A stretch of DNA of 64,000 nt from Octopus vulgaris. Its lineage: Eukaryota. The first letter of the stretch is position 1; every line of letters begins with the position of its first letter. Shown here one piece after another: positions 1-60,799 of the stretch. The translations under genes were made by a program, and so were the position numbers. The stretch covers positions 44,516,001 to 44,580,000 of the forward strand of contig OX597817.1 in NCBI GenBank assembly GCA_951406725.2. Direction: 5' to 3'. A model generated the notes under the pieces. That model saw nothing but the letters and a program-made list of their open reading frames with translations. It did no database searches and was not told the origin of the DNA.

Positions 1-560
1 GGTTGTGGGCTCGTTTGAAAGAGGGGAGGGGTCGGTTAGGGAAGAGGTGTGAAGTGGACGGGTCGGACTGGAGATGACGGAAAGCTCGAAGAATGGTGCG
101 TTGGAGACGTAGGGTCGTGGGGTGGTAAGTGAGGGGAAAAGGGAGGCGGTAGACTACAGGGCGGGTTCGGGGAGAGAGAGCAGATACACGGTCCACGGAC
201 CGTGCTCTGGCAAGGGCGGTGTGGATAGTGGTGAGGGGGTATCCACGTAGGGTGAAGTGGTGAGCCATACGTTGAGACTGAGTCTCAAAGTCATGGTCGT
301 CACTACAGAGCCTACGTAGACGGAGGAATTGGGAATAGGGGATGGAAAGCTTGGTGTGTTCTGGGTGGGAGGAAGAGAAGTTGAGGTATGAGTGTGAGTC
401 TGTGTGTTTGTAGTGAATGGAGGTGGTAAGAGTGGAGTGAAGAATGGTAACCGAAATGTCGAGGAAGGAGACAGAGGTGTTGGAGATAGTGGAAGTGAAG
501 TGGAGGGCTGGATGGAAAGATTGGACGAAAGAGAGGAAGGAATCTAGATGTTCGCGGGAG
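1..560 (-). mobile_element. Penelope-like element (Neptune-type) RT C-terminal/thumb fragment, 5'-truncated at (TA)n, runs off window edge
   Basis: Manual minus-strand translation (frame not in ORF track) gives FHPALHFTSTISNTSVSFLDISV...TSIHYKHTDSHSYLNFSSSHPEHTKLSIPYSQFLRLRRLCS...RGYP. After a frameshift it reads RLPFPLTYHP...LQSDP...LFPNRPLPSFKRAHN. These are typical PLE RT-thumb and linker motifs. Confidence 0.9.
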
Positions 561-1885: not shown

Positions 1886-2020
1886 GGGTCTCGGAGGAAA
1901 TAGTGTTAGTTGAAGGCTACTAAATCTGCCATACACAGACAACTTCAGGTTTGTATATATAGAGATTATATATATATGCATGCGTGTATATATATACATA
2001 ATATATATACACATGCATAT

Positions 2021-2457
2021 ATGGGTTACAGGACTTAACAAGTTGTAAACAACATGAAATACGAATACAAATGAGTTCAATACGTAAACAACAACGAGAG
2101 GAACAAATGGAAAACAGGACGAGTAACATAAGGAAGGACCCGTCATCAGTCGTGGGCTGAGCATGTACTCCTTATTTCGAGCACTGAGCGACAATATGTG
2201 TCTTTGAAGACAGTTGCTCCCATGAGTACCAAAATGACATTTTGGATTTATGGACGGTCAAAGTTGGGAACAAAAACAGGACAGTGGAGACATACAAGGA
2301 AGTCGAACGAAAACAAATATGGAGGGTCGTTAGATCAGAAGGAGAGTAAAAGAGCGAACGCTGGAGAAATAATTTCTTTGACAAGGGAAAATATACAAGA
2401 GAGAGATATAAGATACGTCCAGTCTTTAGAGCATCCCTGAAAGAAAAGAATGGTGAT

Positions 2458-5096: not shown

Positions 5097-5161
<65 letters not shown>

Positions 5162-5249
5162 GGTATGTAGAAAAATACAACATGGACAAGAACGTATAAC
5201 TCTTAGAAGACGACACAATAAACACGGACAGGACATTCGAAACCCTCAG

Positions 5250-5322
5250 TCTTCAGTCAAGAACCGGATCATCGTAGTAATTTCGGCTGATTAATCTTGA
5301 GATTACTAGATCACGGCCAGCC
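5250..5322 (-). ncRNA. Candidate scrambled-order hammerhead ribozyme, family 1 copy 1
   Basis: RNA GGCUGG CCGUGAUC UAGUAAU C UCAAGA UUAA UCAGCC GAA AUUACUA CGAU GAUCCGG U UCUUGA CUGAAGA. Helix I (6 bp), helix II (6 bp) and helix III (7 bp) all lie in register with the core. Confidence 0.6.
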
Positions 5323-6101
5323 CTCCAAGAAAAACCAAGCAACGAGCATTAGAAAAACTAAGCTGGAAGCGTAGATTTCCTGGAAGAAGGATCGAATGCA
5401 TACGAACACCAGGACAGCAAAAGGGACAGATATAAAAAAACAAAAAACAATAATGGAATACAGAAACATGAAATACAGAAGCATTAACGGTGAAAACAAC
5501 AGTGTCTTACGACTGATAACAAGCAAACAAATTTTTTCTCTGGCGCAATGGAAAAAGCCTTTATAGTGGCGGACGAAAACAGCGATGTTAACACGACGAG
5601 GGTCAGAAGCTGAAAGGCAGATTTCGGCCAACAGTCACGTGACAGAGAAGAGGGAAAAGAAAAGAAAGAGAAGCAAAGGAAGAGAGAGAGAGAGGAGAGA
5701 GAGAGAGGAGGGACAAACGCAACAAAGAGAGAGAAGAGAGAGAAAGAAGGAATCAGAGAGGAGAAGGGATGGGTGTCGAAGAATGACCTGTTAGTGCAGA
5801 GCGAGACAAAGAAATAGGAGGGTAGTGGAAGACTAGACCAAAGAATCAGAGGAAAGAGAAGAGAAAAAGAGGATGAGTAGAGAGAAAAGAGAGAGAGGGG
5901 GACAGATCAAGTAAAAATGAGAGAGAGAGACAAACAGAGAGTCGTACCAATTATTAAGAATATGTGCTCACATAAATGTTAAGGGGGTACGGGGCGCCTG
6001 GAATATATGTTAAGGTATGTAGAAAAATACAACATGGACAAGAACGTATAACTCTTAGAAGACGACACAATAAACACGGACAGGACATTCGAAACCCTCA
6101 G

Positions 6102-6174
6102 TCTTCAGTCAAGAACCGGATCATCGTAGTAATTTCGGCTGATTAATCTTGAGATTACTAGATCACGGCCAGCC
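6102..6174 (-). ncRNA. Candidate scrambled-order hammerhead ribozyme, family 1 copy 2
   Basis: Identical to 5250-5322. Confidence 0.6.
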
Positions 6175-6709
6175 CTCCAAGAAAAACTAAGCAACGAGCA
6201 TTAGAAAAACTAAGCTGGAAGCGTAGATTTCCTGGAAGAAGGATCGAATGCATACGAACACCAGGACAGCAAAAGGGACAGATATAAAAAAACAAAAAAC
6301 AATAATGGAATGTGTGTGTGTTTGTGTGTGTGTGTATGTATGCATATAGAAATACATATAATATAATCATACAAGCACATATACGCACACTCATACTCAC
6401 GCATAGACACACACATATTAGAGTAGATCTAATAGACCGAAACGTTTGCTACACACGAAGAAGAATATTGGAATACATTTTTATAATATACAAGAATAGA
6501 ATATACAATGTGTATAAAAACTAAAACGTTAGAAACAATTAAGAATGAAAGACAGAGTACAAAGCACAAAGCTAAAGCGTTAAAACAGAGGGAGATATAA
6601 CTATAATACTTAAAACGCAGAACATACTCGCAGTCACATAGACACACATATCGTAATATATATTATAACATGAAGGTATAGTCACAGAGATAATATATAT
6701 ATATATATG

Positions 6710-7110: not shown

Positions 7111-8020
7111 GGATAAGCTCTACAGACACGGCTCGAGAAAGACGGGGCCGACCTGCCCGAGATGCGGTCAGAGCGACTAGACCGTTCTGCACGCACTCGT
7201 GCAGTGTCCAACAATTTCCGACCTGTGGGCTTATGTCGAACAACTGCTGTCACGTGTGGGACGAGTCGGTTTATCAGCTGAGTCTATCGTCAATATTGTC
7301 ACGCCTCCTTCCTTCAAACGGGAAGGAAGAGCTATTTTCATCATCCTTGTGGCTATGGCGAAAGAATGTATCTGGTGGACGCGTCTGAAAGGATTGGAGA
7401 CAAACACTTTCCTCTCTGGTCAATCTCTCATCAACTTCTTCAAGTACCACTTGAAAAGGAAAGTGAGAGTAGAGAGGCAAGTTTTGTCTAGCGAATGTTT
7501 TAAAAAAAGATGGGTGAATGTAGCAAGGATGGCACGTATGAATGACGAAGCCACCTTGAGCATAATCCTATGAACCCAGAAATTGAAAACAGAGGGTTAC
7601 CCACTTGCAAACAAATGTGGTAACATATAACAATATTGACCAAGGTTACCGTGGTCTTTTTCGTAGGCTTTTCTTCCCACGGATAAACCTTACTTGCTTT
7701 CCCCTTTACACCATATATCATAACACTGTGATACACGATCCCTATTGATCGTTTTTTTCCTCTTTTTTTTTCTTTTTTCATTTCCCTTTTCTTTTGTTCC
7801 TTTTCCTTTTCTTTTTTTTTTATTTTTATTTTTTTATTTTTTATTTTATTTTTTTTGTTCTCTTCTTCCCTTTTACGATCCCTCTTGATCGAAAACCTAC
7901 GCCACCCCCTTTTTTTTGTTTCTTTTGTTTTTTTTTTGTTTTTTCATCCTCCAAAAGAAAAACTCTACCTTGTAACTTGTCCCATCGGTCTGCAGCCCTG
8001 TGTGGCCAATAAAGAAACTT
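7111..8020 (+). mobile_element. 5'-truncated Tx1/L1-clade LINE (ORF2 C-terminal zinc finger and 3'UTR)
   Basis: Homologous to 13423-14276. Ends AATAAAGAAACT, then (TATC)n. Confidence 0.93.
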
Positions 8021-8087: not shown

Positions 8088-8300
8088 CTGGACAGACAGA
8101 CGCAAGTCAAATGGGCTCCAAGTAAGTTGGTCATTTTGTACGTTCAAAAGTGTTTATTGTCAAATATTTTGTGTTTAAAAGTTGTGCAACGTCCACTGCA
8201 AACTTTGACTAATATTTACACAAAATTTTGCCCTTTGTGGGCAAAATTTTTAAAATTTTCGTAGGCCTCGTGTTGTATTTTAGCCATTTTATTTTCAAAA

Positions 8301-10440
8301 ATGGCTACTGGTCACCACGAGGCTGAGGCGCAACTGAAGCGTGACGCCAAAACAAAAAAACAGGTTGCCCTGTCACCATGCGCTGAACTTGACTGTGTAG
8401 ACACTACTTACACCACCACCACCACCACCACCACCATCAGCATCAACAACAGCAACAAATACAAAACAAAGGTTGCAAGGCCAAGCACCGTCACCGCCAC
8501 CAATGATTCCACCATCAACACCGACACCACCACCATGGCAGCTTCTGCTACTACAACTGCTATCTCTGCTAACTACACCACTACCAACAACAATAACAAT
8601 ACCAACATCACCAACACCGCCACCAAAGACCGTGCCGTCAATGCCTCCCTTGCTACTAATACCACCGCCGTCACCAAGAACGACAATAACAACAACAACA
8701 ACAACAATTCCCTTCAGCCACTGTTCCCTCCATCACCAACACGTGAAGGAGAGAAAAATAACCGCGACCATCAAACGAGGTGCCGAAATTTGCGCTAATA
8801 CAGGAGCAAATTACGCAGACAATTTTCCACCCCTTGCTAGTTGCATAATCAGCAACCACAAACTTAATATACCCCCAACCCACACCCCTGCCATCAACAC
8901 CAACACCACCAGCAGTAACAACAATAACAAAACAACAACAAACTTCGCCGAGGCGATAAAAGAAAAAATAACAAGAGTATCGTTTACTGCACAGCAGGTA
9001 AAAGACTCCAGAGCCCTAATCACCAAAGAAAACGGCAAAATACAATTACACATACCACAACACATACTGAATGAGGAAAAAAAGAAAACGATTATTTATA
9101 AAATAACAAACAACACAACTAAAAGTCCAGAAAAAGCAAGCACGGACAAAATAGAAAAGTGCCTACGCCCCATCTGGGGATACAAGGAGTATGTGACTTG
9201 GTCGAACAAGTTTGCCCACGTACAGGTGGTTTTTCAGAATGAAGAGTTGGCAAAGCAATTCTCAACGTTAACTCTTCATTCAGAAGAGCTAACAATGACA
9301 CCCAGTTACCTTGGCCAGAAGGTGACAAAGGTCATTATCAATAATGTCCCGCAAATAACAACCACACTATGGATAACATCCGCCATATGCGTCGAAATGG
9401 AGGACATAAACATCCTGGATATAACTGTTTCAAAACACAAGGACTGGGTGGGAAAGAGAATGGAGATTCTCCTCCACATAAGCCAAGACGACATTAATAA
9501 AATTCCCACCCACGTACATCTTGCGGATGACCGCAAGTTGTATGTAGTAGTCGAGGGCAGAAGGCCACGCTGCTATACATGCGGCAGTGAAACACATCTC
9601 AAAAAGGAGTGCAAATCTGCCGAGAAACAACAACAATAACAACAGCCACAGGAAAAACCACAAAAGCCAGCATTATTGCCCACACCACAGTATGGACGGC
9701 TAATTAAGAAGATATATGCAGAAATGCATGAAAAGCAACAAAGAACGGACCAACCCAACCAAACAACACCATCACCTGCGCCAAGAACAGAACCATCACC
9801 ACCAACAACAACTAAACCAATTGCAACACCGAGAACAACAACGAAGAAGACAATCACCAAGGATGTAGGAGAGACAATCACCACACCAAACCCCCCAGCA
9901 ACACCCCCCGCGCACCACAACAATATCTACAACCGCACAAACAGACCCAGATGCTTTACCCTTGCTCCCTGCTGATTCGTCAGACTTTTCATCTAACGAT
10001 GAAAGTTCTACAGAATGACAAATAGCCAAATAGGGGGTAAAAGAAAAAGATAAAAAACAAACAAACAAGAAAACGCAACCAAAGCAGGGAGATACCGGAA
10101 CCCTGAAAGCTCCATACACAACCAAACAAGCACCAACACCACAAAAACACACACAATACTATCAGCGATAGACACCAAAGACTCCAAACTAATGGAGTAC
10201 ATCACAGCCCACACAAACATCTGTGAAGATGACTTCAAAACTAACAACCATTCACGCACTACACCACCCAAGCACATCAAAATACTACACATCACACAAA
10301 CACAACACCACACACTCAAAGCCCTCTTTCCAAATGCGGTTGGGGGGTTCCAAAAATGCCTTTCACAAAAACTCTATAAAAACCTCCTCCAAGACACATC
10401 AAAGAACGAGGAAGCCAAAACTTTCGACACAAGTAAGTAA
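8301..10440 (+). pseudogene. Tx1-type ORF1 (Thr/Asn-rich N-terminus, RRM-like region, zinc knuckle), disrupted
   Basis: ATG at 8301, frameshift into the 8473-9639 frame, VVEGRRPRCYTCGSETHLKKEC (CX2CX4HX4C), premature TAA within a CAA run at 9637, and further stops. Confidence 0.8.
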
Positions 10441-10490
10441 CTCTCAGTACCTTCCTTTTTGTGTTTTAAAGCACACACCCCAATAGAATC

Positions 10491-13400
10491 ATGGTCAAGA
10501 TTGGTTGTGTGAATGCGCGTGGCTTGGGGTCTCCTTGGAAACAAGGATACCTCCTAAGTGACATCAAGTCACATGATTTGGGAATCATAGCCATAAGTGA
10601 GACCAGACTCCACGAGACGCGGGCCCTAAAGTCCGTGTTTGGCGGACAGTTTAACATTTATTTTGCTCCCTGTCTGCCGAGGATGGGCGGTAGTGGCACC
10701 GCGGTACTTTTTCACAAGAGCCTGGATCTCGAAGTCAAGACGATATTCGTAGACGCGGAGGGTAGACTGGTCATTCTGGATGTCGACGGCAGCAATGGGT
10801 GCGCTTTTCAACACGTATCAGTCTATGCACCGCCTTTAACAGGTCGGCCGGATTTCTTTCGACGTCTAGAAGTATTCCTGGGAACGTCTCGTCCTTTACT
10901 TTTAGTGGGGGATTGGAATGCTACCTTGGACACGCATCTAGACTATGTGGGGAGAGACAAAAACAGAAGGGGATGCAAATGCCTCAGAGACCTGCTCAGA
11001 CGATTCCAACTGCCTGACAGGTACCGACTCGACCACCCAAATGCACCAACGTGGACATGGAGCAACCGCAGTGGGTCGTCGAGATCGTATCTAGATAGGA
11101 TACTGTGTAGGACAGTAGACAGGGATAACTTAGGATGTCCACAATTCCACACAGTCAGCTACACGGATCACAAATTCGTGACGTGTACGCTAGACTTAAA
11201 TAAGACACATAGACAGGGTCCTGGTTACTGGAAACTGAACACATCTTTCCCGTCCAGACAGGTTTTCAGAGACAGAATCAACACGTTAGTAAAAAGGGCT
11301 TTAACGGGAGCCATTGTCAACAACAAATGGTGGTTCGCCTTCAAGAGAGCAGTAAAAGCGGAAGCAATTAGATATAGCAAGGCACTAGCCGTAGATAGAA
11401 ATAGAGTAGAGGGTGAGTTAGTTAAGAAGTTAGAAGAGGCAATAAGAAGCGGCATCACATCCGACGTTTTAGCGGCGAGGTTGCCCCTTGGCCAACACTT
11501 CAACGCCAAACACGAAGGGTGTGCTGTCAGGGCTAGGATGCGTGCTCTAAGGATGCAAGGTGTTGGAGCCGCGAGGGAGGCCCGGGTGGCGGAGGCGCAG
11601 CAGAGCAACAAAGCCACCATTCGGTCTCTGGTAGATGAACAAGGGCACGAATTGCTCGAGCCCAGCAAGATGTGCCAGACATTTCAGCGGCACTTTGCCC
11701 GACTGTACGGGACGAGTAGCGAGCGTGAACGCAGGGTGGACTTCAGTGCCTACCTGCACAGCCTACCACGACTCTCGGCAAGAGAGGCAGAGTGCTGCGA
11801 AGGTGCCATCACGGCGGCGGATGTGCGGGACGCGATGGCAGAATGCTCGAGAGACAAAACGCCGGGCTTGGATGGTCTGCCCTACGAGTTTTACAATTGT
11901 ATGCCAGACTTGTTTGGAGACGTCTTGGCAGCGGTATACTGCAACTGGCAGCAAAACAGGAGCATACCCGGTTTTGTGAGTTGAGGAGCCGTAACGCTGC
12001 TGAAGAAAGATCCAAAAAAGGGGAACATTATAGATAACTTTAGATCAATCACTCTGCTCAATGCAGACCTGAAAATTTTGACAAAGGTGTTAGCCAAGAG
12101 GTTGGCGCTTGTCATCGAGAAACTGGTCGACAACGCACAAACGTGCGCCGTGCCGGGCCAGAGCATCCATGACAACCTCCATCTGATGCGCTACATCATA
12201 GACAGAGTAGTTAAGGAACCTGGCATGGCTGGGGCCCTGATCAACTTGGATCAATCGAAAGCCTTCGGTAGGGTAGACCATCGATACTTGGAGGCAGTCC
12301 TCAGAGCAGCTGGTTTCGGTCCCGTCTTCCGCGGCTGGATAGCTGCCTTGTACAGAGGCATCCGTACGGTAATTCGCTTAAATGGACATCTATCGAGACC
12401 TTTCAACATTGCACGTTTGGTCCGTCTCGGCGCTTCTATACGTATTGACTCTCGAGCCACTACTGCGGAATCTGGCATCCCACGAGAACTGGGATGCGGG
12501 ACGAGCGTGTCTGCATACGCGGACGACGTCACCGTCATAGTGTCAAGCCACGAGCACATCGAGCTGGTCGGCGAGACATTGAAAGACTACAAAGCGGTGA
12601 CAGGAGCAAAAATCAACCGGGAAAAGTCAGTGGGCTTGCGGCTCGGCACCTGGAGAAGCAAGCCCATGCCGTCCACCAGTACCTCCGTCGTGGGACGCTG
12701 GTTGAGTTGCTCGGGGTCTGGTTCGGACCGGACCTCCAAATGGAGAAGAACTGGAACGAGATAACGAGTAGGGTGGTCACTCTCGCCCAGCAATGGGCCG
12801 AGAGAAAACTGTCCCTAAAAGGTCGGGCGGAGGTGGCGAACACGTACATCACGTCCATCATCTACTACCGCCTGACCGTCGTACCTTGTCCCGACCCTAC
12901 CATCACCAAACTAGAACGCATTCTCTCCGCTTCTTGTGGAAAGGATGCGTCCCGATGGTCAGGCGATCCATTTGCTGTCAACACCCGTTAAAAGGAGGGC
13001 TGGGCATGCCGTGGTTGATGATGCGCAGACACGCGCTGAGACTGCGACATCTCCGGCTCTATGTAGACGACCGTGAACAGGTGTCGCCGTTTGTTAGGCA
13101 CGCGTTCCCGCAGCTCGTCTCCATGACCGAACTGCAGTCGTGGATCAAAAAGAGGCCGAGGAAGGGAGAATGGCACCGCGAGTGTCGCGTTGCTCTCAAG
13201 CAACTCTGCCGTCCCGGGTCGACCTAGAGTGACTTCAACACAACCAAAGCATTCTATAGGGGATTAGTGGAGGGGAGGTACGACGACGATCTTGGGGCAA
13301 ACCTGGGCGTCGACGAGGAATACCTGACCCGCCTGTTTGAAACTACTTTCGGGCCGGGACCTATGGACAACTTCCAGAGATCCCTGGCCTGGCGGTGCTA

Positions 13401-13883
13401 CCGAGAAGCGCTACCCGTTCGGGATAAGCTCTATAGGTCATGGTTCGAGAAACACGGGGCCGACCTGCCCGAGATGCGGGCAGAGCGACGAAACCGCTCT
13501 GCACGCGATCGTGCAGTGTCCAACAATCTCCGACCTGTGGGCTTATGGCGAACGACTGCTGTCACGTGTGGGACGTGTCGGTTTATCAGCCGAGTCTATC
13601 GTTAATATCGTCACGCCTCCTTCCTTCAAACGGGAAGGAAGAGCTATTTTTATCATACTTGTGGCTATAGAGAAAGAATGTATCTGGTGGACGCGCCTGA
13701 AAGGATTAGAGACAAACACTTTCCTCTCTGGTCAATCTCACATCAACTTCTTCAAGTATCACTTGAAGAGGAAAGTGAGAGTAGAGAGGCAAGTTTTGTC
13801 TAGTGAATGTTTTAAAAAGATGGGTGAATGTAGCAAGGATGGCACGTATGAATGACGAAGCCACCTTGACTACGATTCTATGA
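10491..13883 (+). pseudogene. ORF2: apurinic-type endonuclease, reverse transcriptase and C-terminal zinc finger, disrupted
   Basis: NARGL, ISET, GDWN, SYLDRI, TDH (APE); KTPGLDGLP, LDQSKAF, YADD at 12516 (RT); CPRCGQSDETALHAIVQC. Stop at 11982 and several frameshifts. Confidence 0.92.
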
Positions 13884-35119: not shown

Positions 35120-35282
35120 AAATACAAAAATTGGACAAGGACGTAAAACATCCAGTCAGATGAAACAAAAGAATTTGGTAAAAAATATCCATACAGACGT
35201 TAAAAGGAAACAAGGACGGATCATTCTGAGTTTTCTATCCTCAGTCGAGTTCCAGATTATCTTTGCAATTTCGGCAGGTTAT
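35120..35282 (-). mobile_element. Truncated diverged relative of family 1 element, half of scrambled hammerhead (35238-35278)
   Basis: CCUGCC GAA AUUGCAA AGAU AAUCUGG A ACUCGA CUGAGGA, with the same 25-nt spacing between GAA and CUGAnGA as family 1. Confidence 0.55.
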
Positions 35283-35660
35283 GATATGCGAGTGTCTGTG
35301 TGTATGTATAATGGATATACTGCGCTAATCCTTTGCTGCTGTCTCTCGTCTATTAATTCGCATGTAGCGTTTATGATTTTAAAATAAGAATGGTCAATTG
35401 AGTGGTACTGTCCAGATGTAGAAACTATAATGACGTGTTAGGCAGCTGATAATGGGTGCATACATTTGATGTTCTTGTTAACTGGGAATCTTTTGAATCC
35501 TGTGCTCTCGTCGTTTTAAATTGCCCTTCATTGAAACGCTAGTCCTCCTAGGGTTAAACGTGTTTCGCGATTTTTGGTTTCGTGATTTAGAATGGTTCTC
35601 TTGTTTGTAGTGTACAATATATTGATACTGCGTGAATGGCATTCATCGGTATGTTTGGTT

Positions 35661-42840: not shown

Positions 42841-42878
<38 letters not shown>

Positions 42879-42884
42879 GCATAT

Positions 42885-43157
42885 ATGGGTATAGGACGTC
42901 ACCAACAGTGAACAGCATGAAATACGAATACAAATGAGTTCAATACTCAAACAACGAGAAAAACGAATGGAAAAGAGGACAAGTAATATAAAGAATGATT
43001 CTTCATCAGTAGGCGAATATCTATCTCCTCCCCATTTCGAGCATTGAACGACAATATGAGTTTTTGAAGACAGTTGCTCCCAAAAGTACCAAAATAAAAT
43101 TTAGGATTTATGAAGGGTCAAAGTTGGGAAGAAAACAAGTCAGTGGAGACATGCAAT
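42885..43157 (-). mobile_element. Family 2 non-coding element with scrambled hammerhead motif (43003-43079)
   Basis: RNA GAGCA A CUGUCU UCAAAAA CUCAU A UUGUCG UUCAA UGCUC GAA AUGGG GAGG AGAUAG AUAUU CGCCUA CUGAUGA; homologous to 2021-2295. Confidence 0.6.
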
Positions 43158-50316: not shown

Positions 50317-50821
50317 TGGCTCTCATGGCTTCTGATCTTAACTGGTTGGAAGTGTTATGCACATTGTTTTATCTTGGTATAAAAGATGGGCTACACCAAA
50401 TATCTTGCTCAATACGACAGATTTACTTGCCAGTTGTTTGACATTAACCAGTTGAGCATGTCCCTTGGTGGCTGACGTTATGTGCATCTCTGATCACGAG
50501 CAGAAGTAGCATGTGCATCATAAGCAGGTATTAAGAGGAATTCACGTGTGGAATCATGGGTGTTTTGTTCATCATCCTTAAACAGCCCTTATTCACGGAC
50601 CTTTTGAGTGGGATGGGCTAAACCTGAAGAAAATTCTACCTGAAGCCCACCTGCAAGGTCATGCGTTGTTTATCTTGATATGAGATTACCATGTCGCGCG
50701 CATATTGTTGTGATGCATGTGCCTGGTGTACCCTTATCAGACGGGTAGTCATGATGGGTATTCTGGGCTTCATATATTTTACCCCAGTGTCACTTTGATG
50801 GAATGCACGGCTCTTCCACTC
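50317..50821. mobile_element. Unclassified about 500-bp interspersed-repeat-like segment embedded in (TAA)n
   Basis: Complex sequence sharply bounded by (TAA)n on both sides; no recognisable ORF. Confidence 0.4.
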
Positions 50822-50908
50822 AATAATAATAATAATAACAATAATAACAATAACAATAACAATAATAATAATAATAACAACAATAACAATAACAATAATA
50901 ATAATAAC

Positions 50909-50940
<32 letters not shown>

Positions 50941-50962
50941 CAATAATAATAATAATAGTAAC

Positions 50963-51019
<57 letters not shown>

Positions 51020-51050
51020 GATAATAATAATAATAACAATAATAATAATA

Positions 51051-53032
51051 GTAGCACCAACAATCATAAAATTCATAGAGCACTCTATGAATAAATGGCA
51101 AACAGTCCTACACCTCCAAACAAAAGAGGGACTCATGAAAACCAAAGACATCCCCATTAGAAGAGGAATATTCCAGGGAGACACGCTCTCTCCACTCCTT
51201 TTCTGCTTGGCACTGTCACCTCTATCTGATATACTAAATAGAACTGGATGCGGATATAAATGTTACGGCAAAACGATCAGCCACCTTTTATATATGGATG
51301 ACCTAAAACTATACGCTGCAAATGACAAACAGCTGGAAACACTATTAAAGACAGTTCATGGATTTACCAAAGAAATAGATATGAAATTTGGATTAGAAAA
51401 ATGCTCCAAAGTAACCATGAAAAGAGGAAAACTAGTTAAGAGTAACAACATCACACTAGATAAAACCAATGAAATAAAAGAATTAGACCAAAGCCTAACT
51501 TACAAATACTTAGGAATCCATGAACTAGATAAGACACAACACACACAAATGAAAGAGAAAATAAAAAAAGAATATTATAGACGAGTTAGATCTATACTAA
51601 AAACAGAGCTCAATGCTAAAAACAAGATAATAGGTATCAACACTTTAGCTGTCCCAGTTATAAGTTACAGCTACAATATCCTTAACTGGACACTAAATGA
51701 ACTGACCAAAATAGATAGGAAAACAAGAAAAATAATGACAGGATCTAGGATGCATCACCCAAAATCTGACATAGAAAGACTATATATACAACGTATAGAA
51801 GGTGGTAGAGGCCTTATACAGCTGGAAAACTACTATAAAATAACCACCATAGGACTGCAAAAATATCTACTTCAGAAGGAAGGAAAACTGATCCAGATAG
51901 CGGCAAAACACGAGCAAAACAAAAAACTGTTTTCAGTATTTAAGGAAGCTGACAAATACAAACAAGAAATCATACCACCTAATAAACATGAAGAAGAAGA
52001 AGAAGAAGAAGAAGAAGAAGAAGAAGAAGAAGAAGAAGAAGAAGAAGAAGAAGAAGAAGAAGAAGAAGAAGAAGAAGAAGAAGAAGACGAAGATGAAGAA
52101 ACAACAAAAGCTATAAAACAAATGAAATCCAAACTAAAAGTAGAACAGCAACGAACCATGATAAAACGATGGCAAGAAAAGCCCCTTCATGGTAAATACT
52201 GGACTAAACTAAACGCAAAAGAAATAGACAAAGAAAAATCCCAGCAATGGTTGAGAAGCTCAGGACTCAAAGCAGAAACAGAGGGATTTTTAATTGCAGC
52301 ACAAGACCAAAGCCTCCCCACCAGAAATTACCAAAAACATGTAATGAAAAGAAATATTACAAGTAACTGCAGAATATGTGGAGATGGACAAGAAACAATA
52401 AATCATATTATCTCTAGCTGCCCAGTCCTGGCTAAGAAGGAATATATTCACAGACATGACAGAGTTGGAACCTACATACATTGGAAGCTATGCCAACATT
52501 ATGGAATAACAACAGAAAAAAGATGGTATAGGCACACACCAGAAAAGGTCACAGAAAACGAGAAAGCAACCATACTCTGGGATATGCCGATACACACAGA
52601 TAAAGAAATTAAGGCCAACAGACCAGATATAGTTGTCAGAGATCATGAAGAAAAAAATGCTTTCTAATTGATGTATCAATACCGGCAGATGACAACGTGT
52701 CTCTAAAAGAAATGGAGAAACTTTCAAAATACAAAGACCTGGAAATAGAGGTAACTAGAATGTGGAATTTGAAAACAGAAACAATTCCTATCATAGTAGG
52801 TGCATTAGGCATGATAAAAAATATTCAAACAAATACATAACAAAAACACCAGGACTTACAAACACATATAACATACAGAAAATTGCACTACTAGGCACTG
52901 CACACATCCTACGCAGAACACTTTCCATACAATAACCATCAGAGCATCACAACAAATCACAGCACATACCCAAGGCACACAGAGCTGCGCTCGGTAGTGA
53001 AGTGAAAGCACGCTATAAAAATAAAACTACTG
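51051..53032 (+). mobile_element. 5'-truncated R4/Dong-clade non-LTR retrotransposon (RT, CCHC, restriction-like endonuclease) in (TAA)n
   Basis: ORF 51087-52667 has GIFQGDTLSPLLF, YMDD, GGRGL, CRIC...HIISSC...RHD and NRPDIVV. After a frameshift in the A-run at about 52651 it reads LIDVSIP...KE.EK..KY.DL. (TAA)n on both flanks. Confidence 0.93.
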
Positions 53033-53086
53033 AATAATAATAATAATAACAATAATAATAACAATAATAATAATAATAGTAACAAC

Positions 53087-53118
<32 letters not shown>

Positions 53119-53158
53119 TAATAATAATAACAACAACAATAATAATAATAACAATAAC

Positions 53159-53221
<63 letters not shown>

Positions 53222-53429
53222 TGTAATTGTTTATCTGAGGACAATACGTTCAATATATTACGGAAATAGGGATAATCCGGTGGAGAGGATGAAACTTGGT
53301 GACGGATGTTTGTTGTCGATCATGTTACTCTGCAAAGTAGCACATACCTTCACACACTCATGTCCCCCTGCCTCGAATAATGCCAGCTCAGTAGTAATAA
53401 TAATGATAATGATGATGATGATACTGACT

Positions 53430-53980
53430 TGGGAGAACACGGAAACTGTGCGAACATAAACCAGAAGGCGTCACTGAGAATAATGAATAAAAGATCTTAT
53501 CGGATTTTACGGTCAAATGTGACTCACTAATTGACGTTCGGAGACCGGACCTTGTTGTAGTTGATGAAGGGTTAAAAAAACAAAGATTCTGGATATTGCC
53601 ATATCTAGGTGAAAAAAAGCTGGAAAAGGTAAAAAAAATACAAGATACTAAAAGACGAAGCTGCAAGAATGAGGGCAAAGAAGAGAATGCCATCCCAACG
53701 GTTGTAGGGGCATTCGGGTCCTTATCAACAATGCTTGAGAAATATGCCGGAGAAGTTGGAATTGAAATGATAGTAGAATATGCTCGAAAATGTGTTGTAT
53801 TGAGGGCAGTGAGGAGTTTGCGATTGTTACTCGGGTGTTATGTATCCTCCACACTACTAAATATCAAAGTACAAAATCTTATAATTCGTGATAAGAGACC
53901 CTGTGAGACCTTTGACAACAACAGGTTGTTGTCCGCCCTCCCAGAATTAACCGGGGGAAGATCAAGGGCTCATGGAAGTA
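53430..53980 (+). pseudogene. Older R4/Dong-like RLE-domain remnant
   Basis: HKPEGVTEN...KILSDF...RRPDLVVVD...ILDIAI...IPTVVGAFG, with stops and frameshifts. Confidence 0.75.
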
Positions 53981-53991
53981 AAATATAATAG

Positions 53992-60358: not shown

Positions 60359-60799
60359 ACAACTCATAAATAAGGGCAAACGAAAAAAATTCTATTGCCA
60401 AATATGCCGAAAACTTGGACATATTGTCCATAACCATATAATTTTTCACAATACGCACGCTACTCGAAAAAAAAGCCGACAGAAATTTCTAAAAAATTCC
60501 ATTATTACCATATCGGACCGATTTCAGGGTTAGTTCATAAGAACCCTCACTTGTTCCATGGGTATGAGTAAGTATTTCATTTATTTCTTTACCACATTTA
60601 TCACTGACGAAGGGAGGGTTCTTACGAACTAACCCTGAAATCGGTCCGATATGGTAATAATGGAATGTTTTAGAAATTTCTGTCAGCTTTTTCTCGAGTA
60701 GCGCGCGTATTGTGAAAAATTATATGGTTATGGGCAATATGTCCAAATTTTCGGCATATTTGGCATTAGAAAATTTTTCGTTTGCCCTTATTTATAAGT

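Follow-up and report, generated by a model that had tools for sequence, protein, structure and literature searches.

Hammerhead ribozymes have been divided into three blocks, C, G and S, which Eckert et al. 2023 (PMC10085705) defined and assumed to be uninterruptible. Under this assumption, which limits hammerheads to six orders, non-circular permutations are known from a few hundred database sequences, and types SGC and CSG cleave at 0.004–0.19 per min (PMC10085705). In mobile elements, the release of units from tandem transcripts was proposed for Penelope elements (PMC4209133) and shown for retrozymes (PMC7229834, bioRxiv 10.64898/2026.07.22.740005). Naiads, which are Penelope-like retrotransposons, were reported without canonical hammerheads, eight cases being flagged as "HHR_half_core", two of them in cephalopods (PMC8557442). 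We analysed a stretch of 64,000 nucleotides from Octopus vulgaris (contig OX597817.1, positions 44,516,001 to 44,580,000; hereafter the window) and, in it, a minus-strand motif at 43003–43079 that a preliminary description had taken for a hammerhead of scrambled architecture, the second of two families dissimilar in sequence. Judged from its sequence, the motif, which ends a non-coding retroelement repeat on its 3' side, is likely to be a rearranged hammerhead fold that has lost none of its catalytic bases and in which four helices covary. Intact copies would probably cleave themselves after the UH triplet, and the copy at 43003–43079 is probably inactive.

From 5' to 3', the motif consists of an arm of helix X, hairpin Y, a stem II arm, 1 nt, an arm of helix P, block S (stem III arm, UH, stem I arm), a 5-nt linker, block G (stem II arm, GAAA, stem III arm), the second P arm, 1 nt, the second stem I arm, CUGANGA and the second X arm. 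The core of the hammerhead class is complete (CUGANGA, GAAA, UH, A15.1-U16.1). The minus-strand letters and coordinates first given for 43079–43003 were correct. The pair counts are 5/5 for stem II, 5/5 for stem III and 4/6 for stem I in this copy, and 5/5, 3/5 (decayed) and 5/6, respectively, in the sister copy at 2219–2143. The span 43003–43079 holds for the core, but the motif really extends from 43120 to 42996, as helices X and Y had been overlooked. Similarly, the extra helix, here called P, exists, but the AGAUAG arm first proposed for it pairs at 6/6 in this copy only. The family arm is AGACAG, one base 5' of the stem I arm, found in 16 of 29 copies; in this register the 3' arm lies at 43022–43017 and makes 5/6 pairs. 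The family-2 core pattern matched the window twice, and never in 100 shuffles.

To follow pairing, 15 copies of equal length, drawn from different subfamilies, were aligned without gaps; the set was assembled from 20 candidates by removing four with longer spacing and two truncated ones and adding a full subfamily-1c copy (L140). This subset alone was counted because a MAFFT alignment of all families misplaced the stem II arm. In the four-helix pseudoknotted structure 86.3% of cells paired, versus 68.3% in shuffled sets, with 75 double changes versus 29.4 and a covariation score of 0.624 versus 0.284 (0/500 shuffles in each case). All four helices covaried. Double changes affected all five pairs of stem II and three of the five pairs of helix P, the tertiary tie between stems I and II, which was 80% paired; slid registers paired only 23–47% of cells. 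Covariation thus backs the pairings of the strand order that runs from the stem II arm through a P arm, block S, block G, the other P arm and the stem I arm to CUGANGA.

The searches set no pairing filter for stems II and P. Their best-offset Watson-Crick pairs, counted in all 32 groups formed at 80% identity by 127 distinct copies from the sampled loci, amounted to 225/320, versus 174.9 +/− 6.2 under a search-matched null. The proposal that structure conserved without sequence argues for a real, selected fold therefore holds, by covariation and by this unfiltered-stem null, far beyond the two families for which it was made. Chance folding in an AT-rich repeat could be invoked for helices that are short and for a core that the searches imposed, but it is effectively refuted by the covariation and by the shuffle and viral controls, which leave it a negligible probability. 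At least 16 of 21 pairs were formed by 27 of the first 30 unselected matches to pattern 1 and by 13 of 29 for pattern 2; in viral contigs, 0 of 95 pattern matches reached 16/21.

Genome-wide, pattern 1 gave 2758 matches versus 114 in the reversed control, and pattern 2 gave 1585 versus 306; the two sets overlap, and pattern 1 leaves out the young family 1. Family 2 is a dispersed repeat, with 3048 first-look genomic candidates. It had been predicted that its consensus would carry CGACAA before CUGAUGA and AUGAG after GAA. Among 29 other genomic copies these were indeed the commonest stem I arm (14/29, the remainder being scattered variants) and stem III arm (23/29); CUGAUGA was present in 22/29, and the majority sequence restores stems I and III. 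The 43003–43079 copy is 89% identical to the family majority and its sister 88%, therefore both are decayed. With two mismatches each in stem I and helix X, the 43003–43079 copy has probably lost activity. Most family-2 copies have a 12-nt palindrome, made of the P arm and the next bases (43061–43071, minus strand), that other families have not kept.

Family 1 has, as first described, the same layout as family 2, with all its stems intact (Table 1). Its copies are young (40/40 of those scored were 100% identical over 201 nt), and many stand in arrays of 2–4 units spaced by ~850 nt. Intermediates bridge the two families, with path steps of 9–22 differences compared to 38 for the direct comparison (57 positions). 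Because of these intermediates, families 1 and 2 represent the divergence of one lineage under structural constraint rather than independent origin or convergence.

Table 1. Features of the hammerhead-like repeats in the window
Feature	Position	Strand	Remarks
5'-truncated copy of the non-coding family-2 repeat (unit ~750 nt)	42875..43156	-	~11% diverged from family majority; ends at (TA)n tract
Helix X, 5' arm	43114..43120	-	partner is the 7 bases that follow CUGAUGA; 5/7 pairs in this copy, 7/7 in the majority sequence
Hairpin Y, abutting stem II	43080..43113	-	5/6 closing pairs here
Stem II 5' arm (G10.1 side), detached from CUGAUGA	43075..43079	-	
Helix P (stem I-stem II tie), 5' arm	43068..43073	-	
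Block S: stem III arm, AUA triplet (predicted cut 43055/43054), stem I arm	43049..43060	-	
Block G: stem II 3' arm, GAAA, stem III arm	43031..43043	-	
Helix P, 3' arm, family register	43017..43022	-	
Stem I arm (4/6 pairs, decayed) and CUGAUGA	43003..43015	-	
Helix X, 3' arm	42996..43002	-	
Sister family-2 copy (motif 2136-2260)	2013..2400	-	decay in stem III, P and X
Family 1: full 850-nt unit and truncated unit in tandem	5142..6311	-	
Family-1 intact motifs (stem II to CUGAAGA)	5250-5322, 6102-6174	-	predicted cuts 5301/5300, 6153/6152
5'-truncated third-subfamily (1c) fragment	35180..35283	-	block G and CUGAGGA only

An ordinary type-SGC hammerhead would take stem II from the bases directly after CUGANGA and leave the 5' arm incidental. 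In family 2 these bases can make 4/5 pairs, G-U wobbles included. The source of stem II, and the recovery of X and Y given below, were examined in 24 of the 32 groups, eight being dropped as truncated or with unassigned offset. Pairing with the 5' arm reached 92/120 Watson-Crick pairs versus 58 in shuffled sequences, whereas pairing with the bases after CUGANGA stayed at chance (41/120 versus 43.3), and family 1 with its subfamilies makes ~1/5 pairs there. Consequently the ordinary type-SGC form is highly improbable. A junction of CUGAUGA with stem II through tandem repetition or splicing was also considered and rejected, as the two are ~700 nt apart within the unit.

The link between A9 and G10.1 is thus open in the chain. 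A viroid hammerhead reportedly tolerates one extra base at this position. A model in which helices X and Y close it as a four-way junction, with stem II still stacked on the core, is predicted, and would explain how CUGAUGA can sit apart from stem II. Under constrained folding the junction formed in 9/24 raw decayed copies, versus a mean of 2.85 and a maximum of 6 over 60 runs with swapped flanks, and it was present in 4 of the top 7 metagenome matches. Unconstrained folds of family 1 and family 3 contain both X and Y. Alternatively, the core might be real and cleaving but simply open at A9/G10.1, X and Y being optional flanking hairpins; the recovery in just nine of the 24 decayed copies, the shortness of X and Y in family 2 (7 and 6 bp) and junction linkers that range from 0 to 4 nt speak for this. 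On the other hand, the X arms change in step between subfamilies and families, and X, Y and II abut with zero unpaired bases in two loci (L290 and L353) as well as, judged by eye, at the ends of Naiad consensus sequences from coral, jellyfish and arthropod. We therefore regard optional hairpins as rather unlikely and retain the four-way junction.

Families 1 and 2 are non-coding units of ~850 and 752 nt, found in tandems of both sizes; the longest ATG frames in them encode 57–83 aa of low complexity. A (TA)4 tract lay within 250 nt downstream of the motif in 91/125 copies versus 27 upstream, at a median of 121 nt for (TA)n. Copies are 5'-truncated and end at (TA)n, sometimes with an inverted neighbour on the 5' side; family sequence occurred on both strands in 6/30 loci, abutting in three. 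The hallmarks reported for Penelope-like elements are (TA)n targets, 5' truncation, partial tandems and inverted 5' copies (PMC8557442). Within the loci sampled, family 2 is non-autonomous.

Three candidate partners of families 1 and 2, namely a Neptune-type reverse transcriptase (RT; window 2–560), a GIY-YIG fragment beside locus L021 and the element of locus L207, were rejected, as they belong to other families. Among the Neptune loci examined, no motif lay downstream of the Neptune open reading frame (ORF). The Neptune-type Penelope element at 2–560 (minus strand), which continues in L061, is young (copies 99% identical at the protein level), and its 3' untranslated region contains, by eye, a minimal hammerhead of type I in which the core has the variant sequence CUGUUGA and an additional A is present. 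In a second Neptune-type family with RT and GIY-YIG (L122:1–2100), inspection by eye shows that the ORF is followed by a minimal motif resembling a hammerhead, the first core segment of which is altered. The L207 element (L207:1900–3053) represents a very young 2.6-kb Penelope-like family, probably of the Hydra clade, with frames to ~717 aa and 150 identical matches; its insertion site is the (TA)n tail that follows a copy of family-1 type.

One family of this genome has a carrier of another kind. In locus L227 the motif begins ~45 nt downstream of the stop codon of a broken ORF, the last part of which is a CCHC and restriction-like endonuclease (RLE) region. A metagenome scan gave 11 of 118 pattern matches with at least 16/21 pairs, one of them (L290) with 21/21, and in four of the top seven (L336, L347, L353 and L313) the motif follows the same kind of ORF end. 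Relatives of this protein are present in bivalves, fish and lancelet, and a Pfam scan of it named no family; the L227/L336-type protein may belong to the HERO clade. In L290 (1–4307) an ORF with a SEFIR domain (IL-17 receptor-like) precedes the perfect motif by ~2.2 kb in the same orientation, and a palindrome centred on (AT)n comes after the motif.

Naiad consensus sequences were inspected by eye, around core matches, in part of the 54 entries of File S5 of PMC8557442. The split layout was recognised at the 3' ends of eleven entries: Naiad_Obim, Ovul, Esco, Amil, Aacu, Anas, Naiad-2_Movir, one Clytia entry, one following the Naiad_Plae header, one arthropod entry and Bfor, the last with a weak stem I. 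X and Y were clear in most of them, weak in Esco and Bfor. A TTAAT/TTAAA linker is common to the motif of this genome and to coral, jellyfish and squid Naiad entries. Six nematode entries showed an unsplit type-CSG hammerhead, and the split layout did not fit the remaining entries seen. Naiad-1_Movir has, by eye, a twister-like motif at its 3' end rather than a hammerhead, so that Naiads may swap ribozyme classes. In the octopus genome the short motif variant of the octopus Naiad had 349 exact matches (control, 0). The rearranged hammerhead may be the ribozyme thought to be missing from Naiads; family 2 carries no ORF, so its own link to them is by resemblance.

If the fold is active, cleavage would occur after H17 by hammerhead chemistry, and in head-to-tail transcripts cuts at successive motifs would release unit-length RNAs. 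After the cut, stem I would lie wholly in the 3' product, and the two products would be held together by four helices, which in family 2 measure 7 bp (X), 5 bp (II), 6 bp (P) and 5 bp (III). A type I hammerhead has just its stem I for this purpose; clamped over ~23 bp, the cut ends would be more readily ligated into circles. Copying of the unit RNAs into (TA)n by a Penelope-like RT would then account for the tandem arrays and for copies that share their 3' end but differ in their 5' end. A different view is that of a hammerhead-derived structure without catalysis, bound at the 3' end by a retrotransposon protein to start reverse transcription. The fixed distance of the motif from (TA)n fits this view, as does the poor in vitro cleavage of minimal Penelope hammerheads (PMC4209133). 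However, comparison between families, between two protein classes of element and, by eye, between phyla shows that no catalytic position is lost and that the UH stays cleavable, and a protein site common to unrelated proteins would not require catalytic bases, which makes a purely structural role distinctly unlikely.

In a broader reading, towards which we lean, the self-cleaving fold represents a seventh topology of hammerheads, permuted non-circularly and with a four-way junction dividing the conserved CUGANGA-stem II block. Many Naiads and some RLE-type non-long terminal repeat (non-LTR) retrotransposons would have it as their standard, overlooked 3' ribozyme, in hosts that range from cnidarians to cephalopods and arthropods; nematode Naiads would have retained the unsplit type-CSG hammerhead. 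The four-helix clamp on the cut ends would drive circularisation of unit RNAs.

Several observations weigh against the rearranged, self-cleaving hammerhead. Two of the five covariation measures were not above shuffles (54/500 and 187/500), and relatedness among the 15 sequences inflates the remaining ones. Stems I and III were pre-filtered at a minimum of four pairs, and the match to the core is built in, the patterns imposing CUGANGA, GAAA, U16.1-A15.1 and H17. X and Y were not recovered in 15/24 raw copies, and in the nested fold of the family-2 majority, computed by a program that cannot form pseudoknots, the stem II arm is preferentially hidden in a hairpin of 9 bp (p 0.82). The open A9-G10.1 link falls outside the tested space, because known alignments permit 1–2 nt between CUGAnGA and the stems (PMC10085705). 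Because no Penelope ORF (GIY-YIG/RT) lay upstream of a motif in 118 loci, a Penelope-like mobiliser of families 1 and 2 is something that we infer. None of the 7 ORF-end sites on C1–C4 had an exact motif of the Naiad-type variant ~1 kb downstream among the matches listed, and the single Naiad copy retrieved from this genome is truncated.

Other elements in the window include a broken long interspersed nuclear element (LINE) at 8265–13850 (plus strand) with endonuclease and RT regions, the C-terminal part of which is repeated at 7181–7570, and a broken non-LTR retrotransposon at 50799–53985 (plus strand), whose RT and RLE pieces lie among (AAT)n and beside which no motif was found. A near-perfect long inverted repeat at 60509–60653, with ~43-bp arms, resembles a miniature inverted-repeat transposable element and has CUGACGA in its loop.

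If the interpretation as a split-block hammerhead is right, an animal genome carries thousands of copies of a form that breaks the six-order limit, and a hammerhead is placed at the 3' end of RLE-type retrotransposons. It would also mean that ordinary descriptors and Rfam overlook a large ribozyme population, and that the reported lack of canonical hammerheads in Naiads has a directly testable explanation. The young, identical family-1 copies are a ready natural construct for assays and structure work. Rfam 15 gave no hammerhead match at the motif even at E<=10, and Rfam scans returned microsatellite-driven miRNA matches only. In the full-text literature, subscription papers and preprint supplements being outside its scope, no split-block hammerhead, non-circular animal hammerhead or hammerhead in a Naiad or HERO tail was found; the available parts of PMC13725137, PMC10162972 and PMC3088659 do not describe a split-block hammerhead.

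Among described systems, the minimal type I hammerheads of Penelope-like pseudo-LTRs (PMC4209133) are likewise near the 3' end, with tandem precursor processing proposed. They are circular-permutation type I, have a weak stem III and act as dimers, whereas the present motif has full stems in a pseudoknotted order. Non-LTR retrozymes (PMC7229834; bioRxiv 10.64898/2026.07.22.740005) share non-coding tandem units with one hammerhead each and a proposed Penelope-like mobilisation, but theirs are type I in units of 150–450 nt, compared to 750–850 nt and a form other than type I here. Naiads marked "HHR_half_core" or "HHR_core" (Craig et al. 2021, PMC8557442) also have (TA)n targets, partial tandems and inverted 5' copies; that paper gives no resolved fold and no canonical hammerhead for them, and family 2 differs in having no GIY-YIG/RT ORF.

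Types I, II and III (Rfam) are nested three-way junctions in the order CGS, GSC or SCG, whereas the blocks here follow S-G-C. The closest relatives are types SGC and CSG (PMC10085705), with the same cyclic S, G, C block order, a complete core, a short linker from stem I to stem II and a fourth helix tying the far ends of these stems, which is helix P here. In contrast to type SGC, in which the stem II arm begins 0–2 nt after CUGANGA, block C is split here, the stem II arm and one P arm lying 5' of block S, and the chain ends exit via the X/Y domain inserted at A9/G10.1. Also unlike those types, the motif resides in animal genomic retroelements, at thousands of copies. It is predicted to work like a type-SGC hammerhead in spite of its divided block C.
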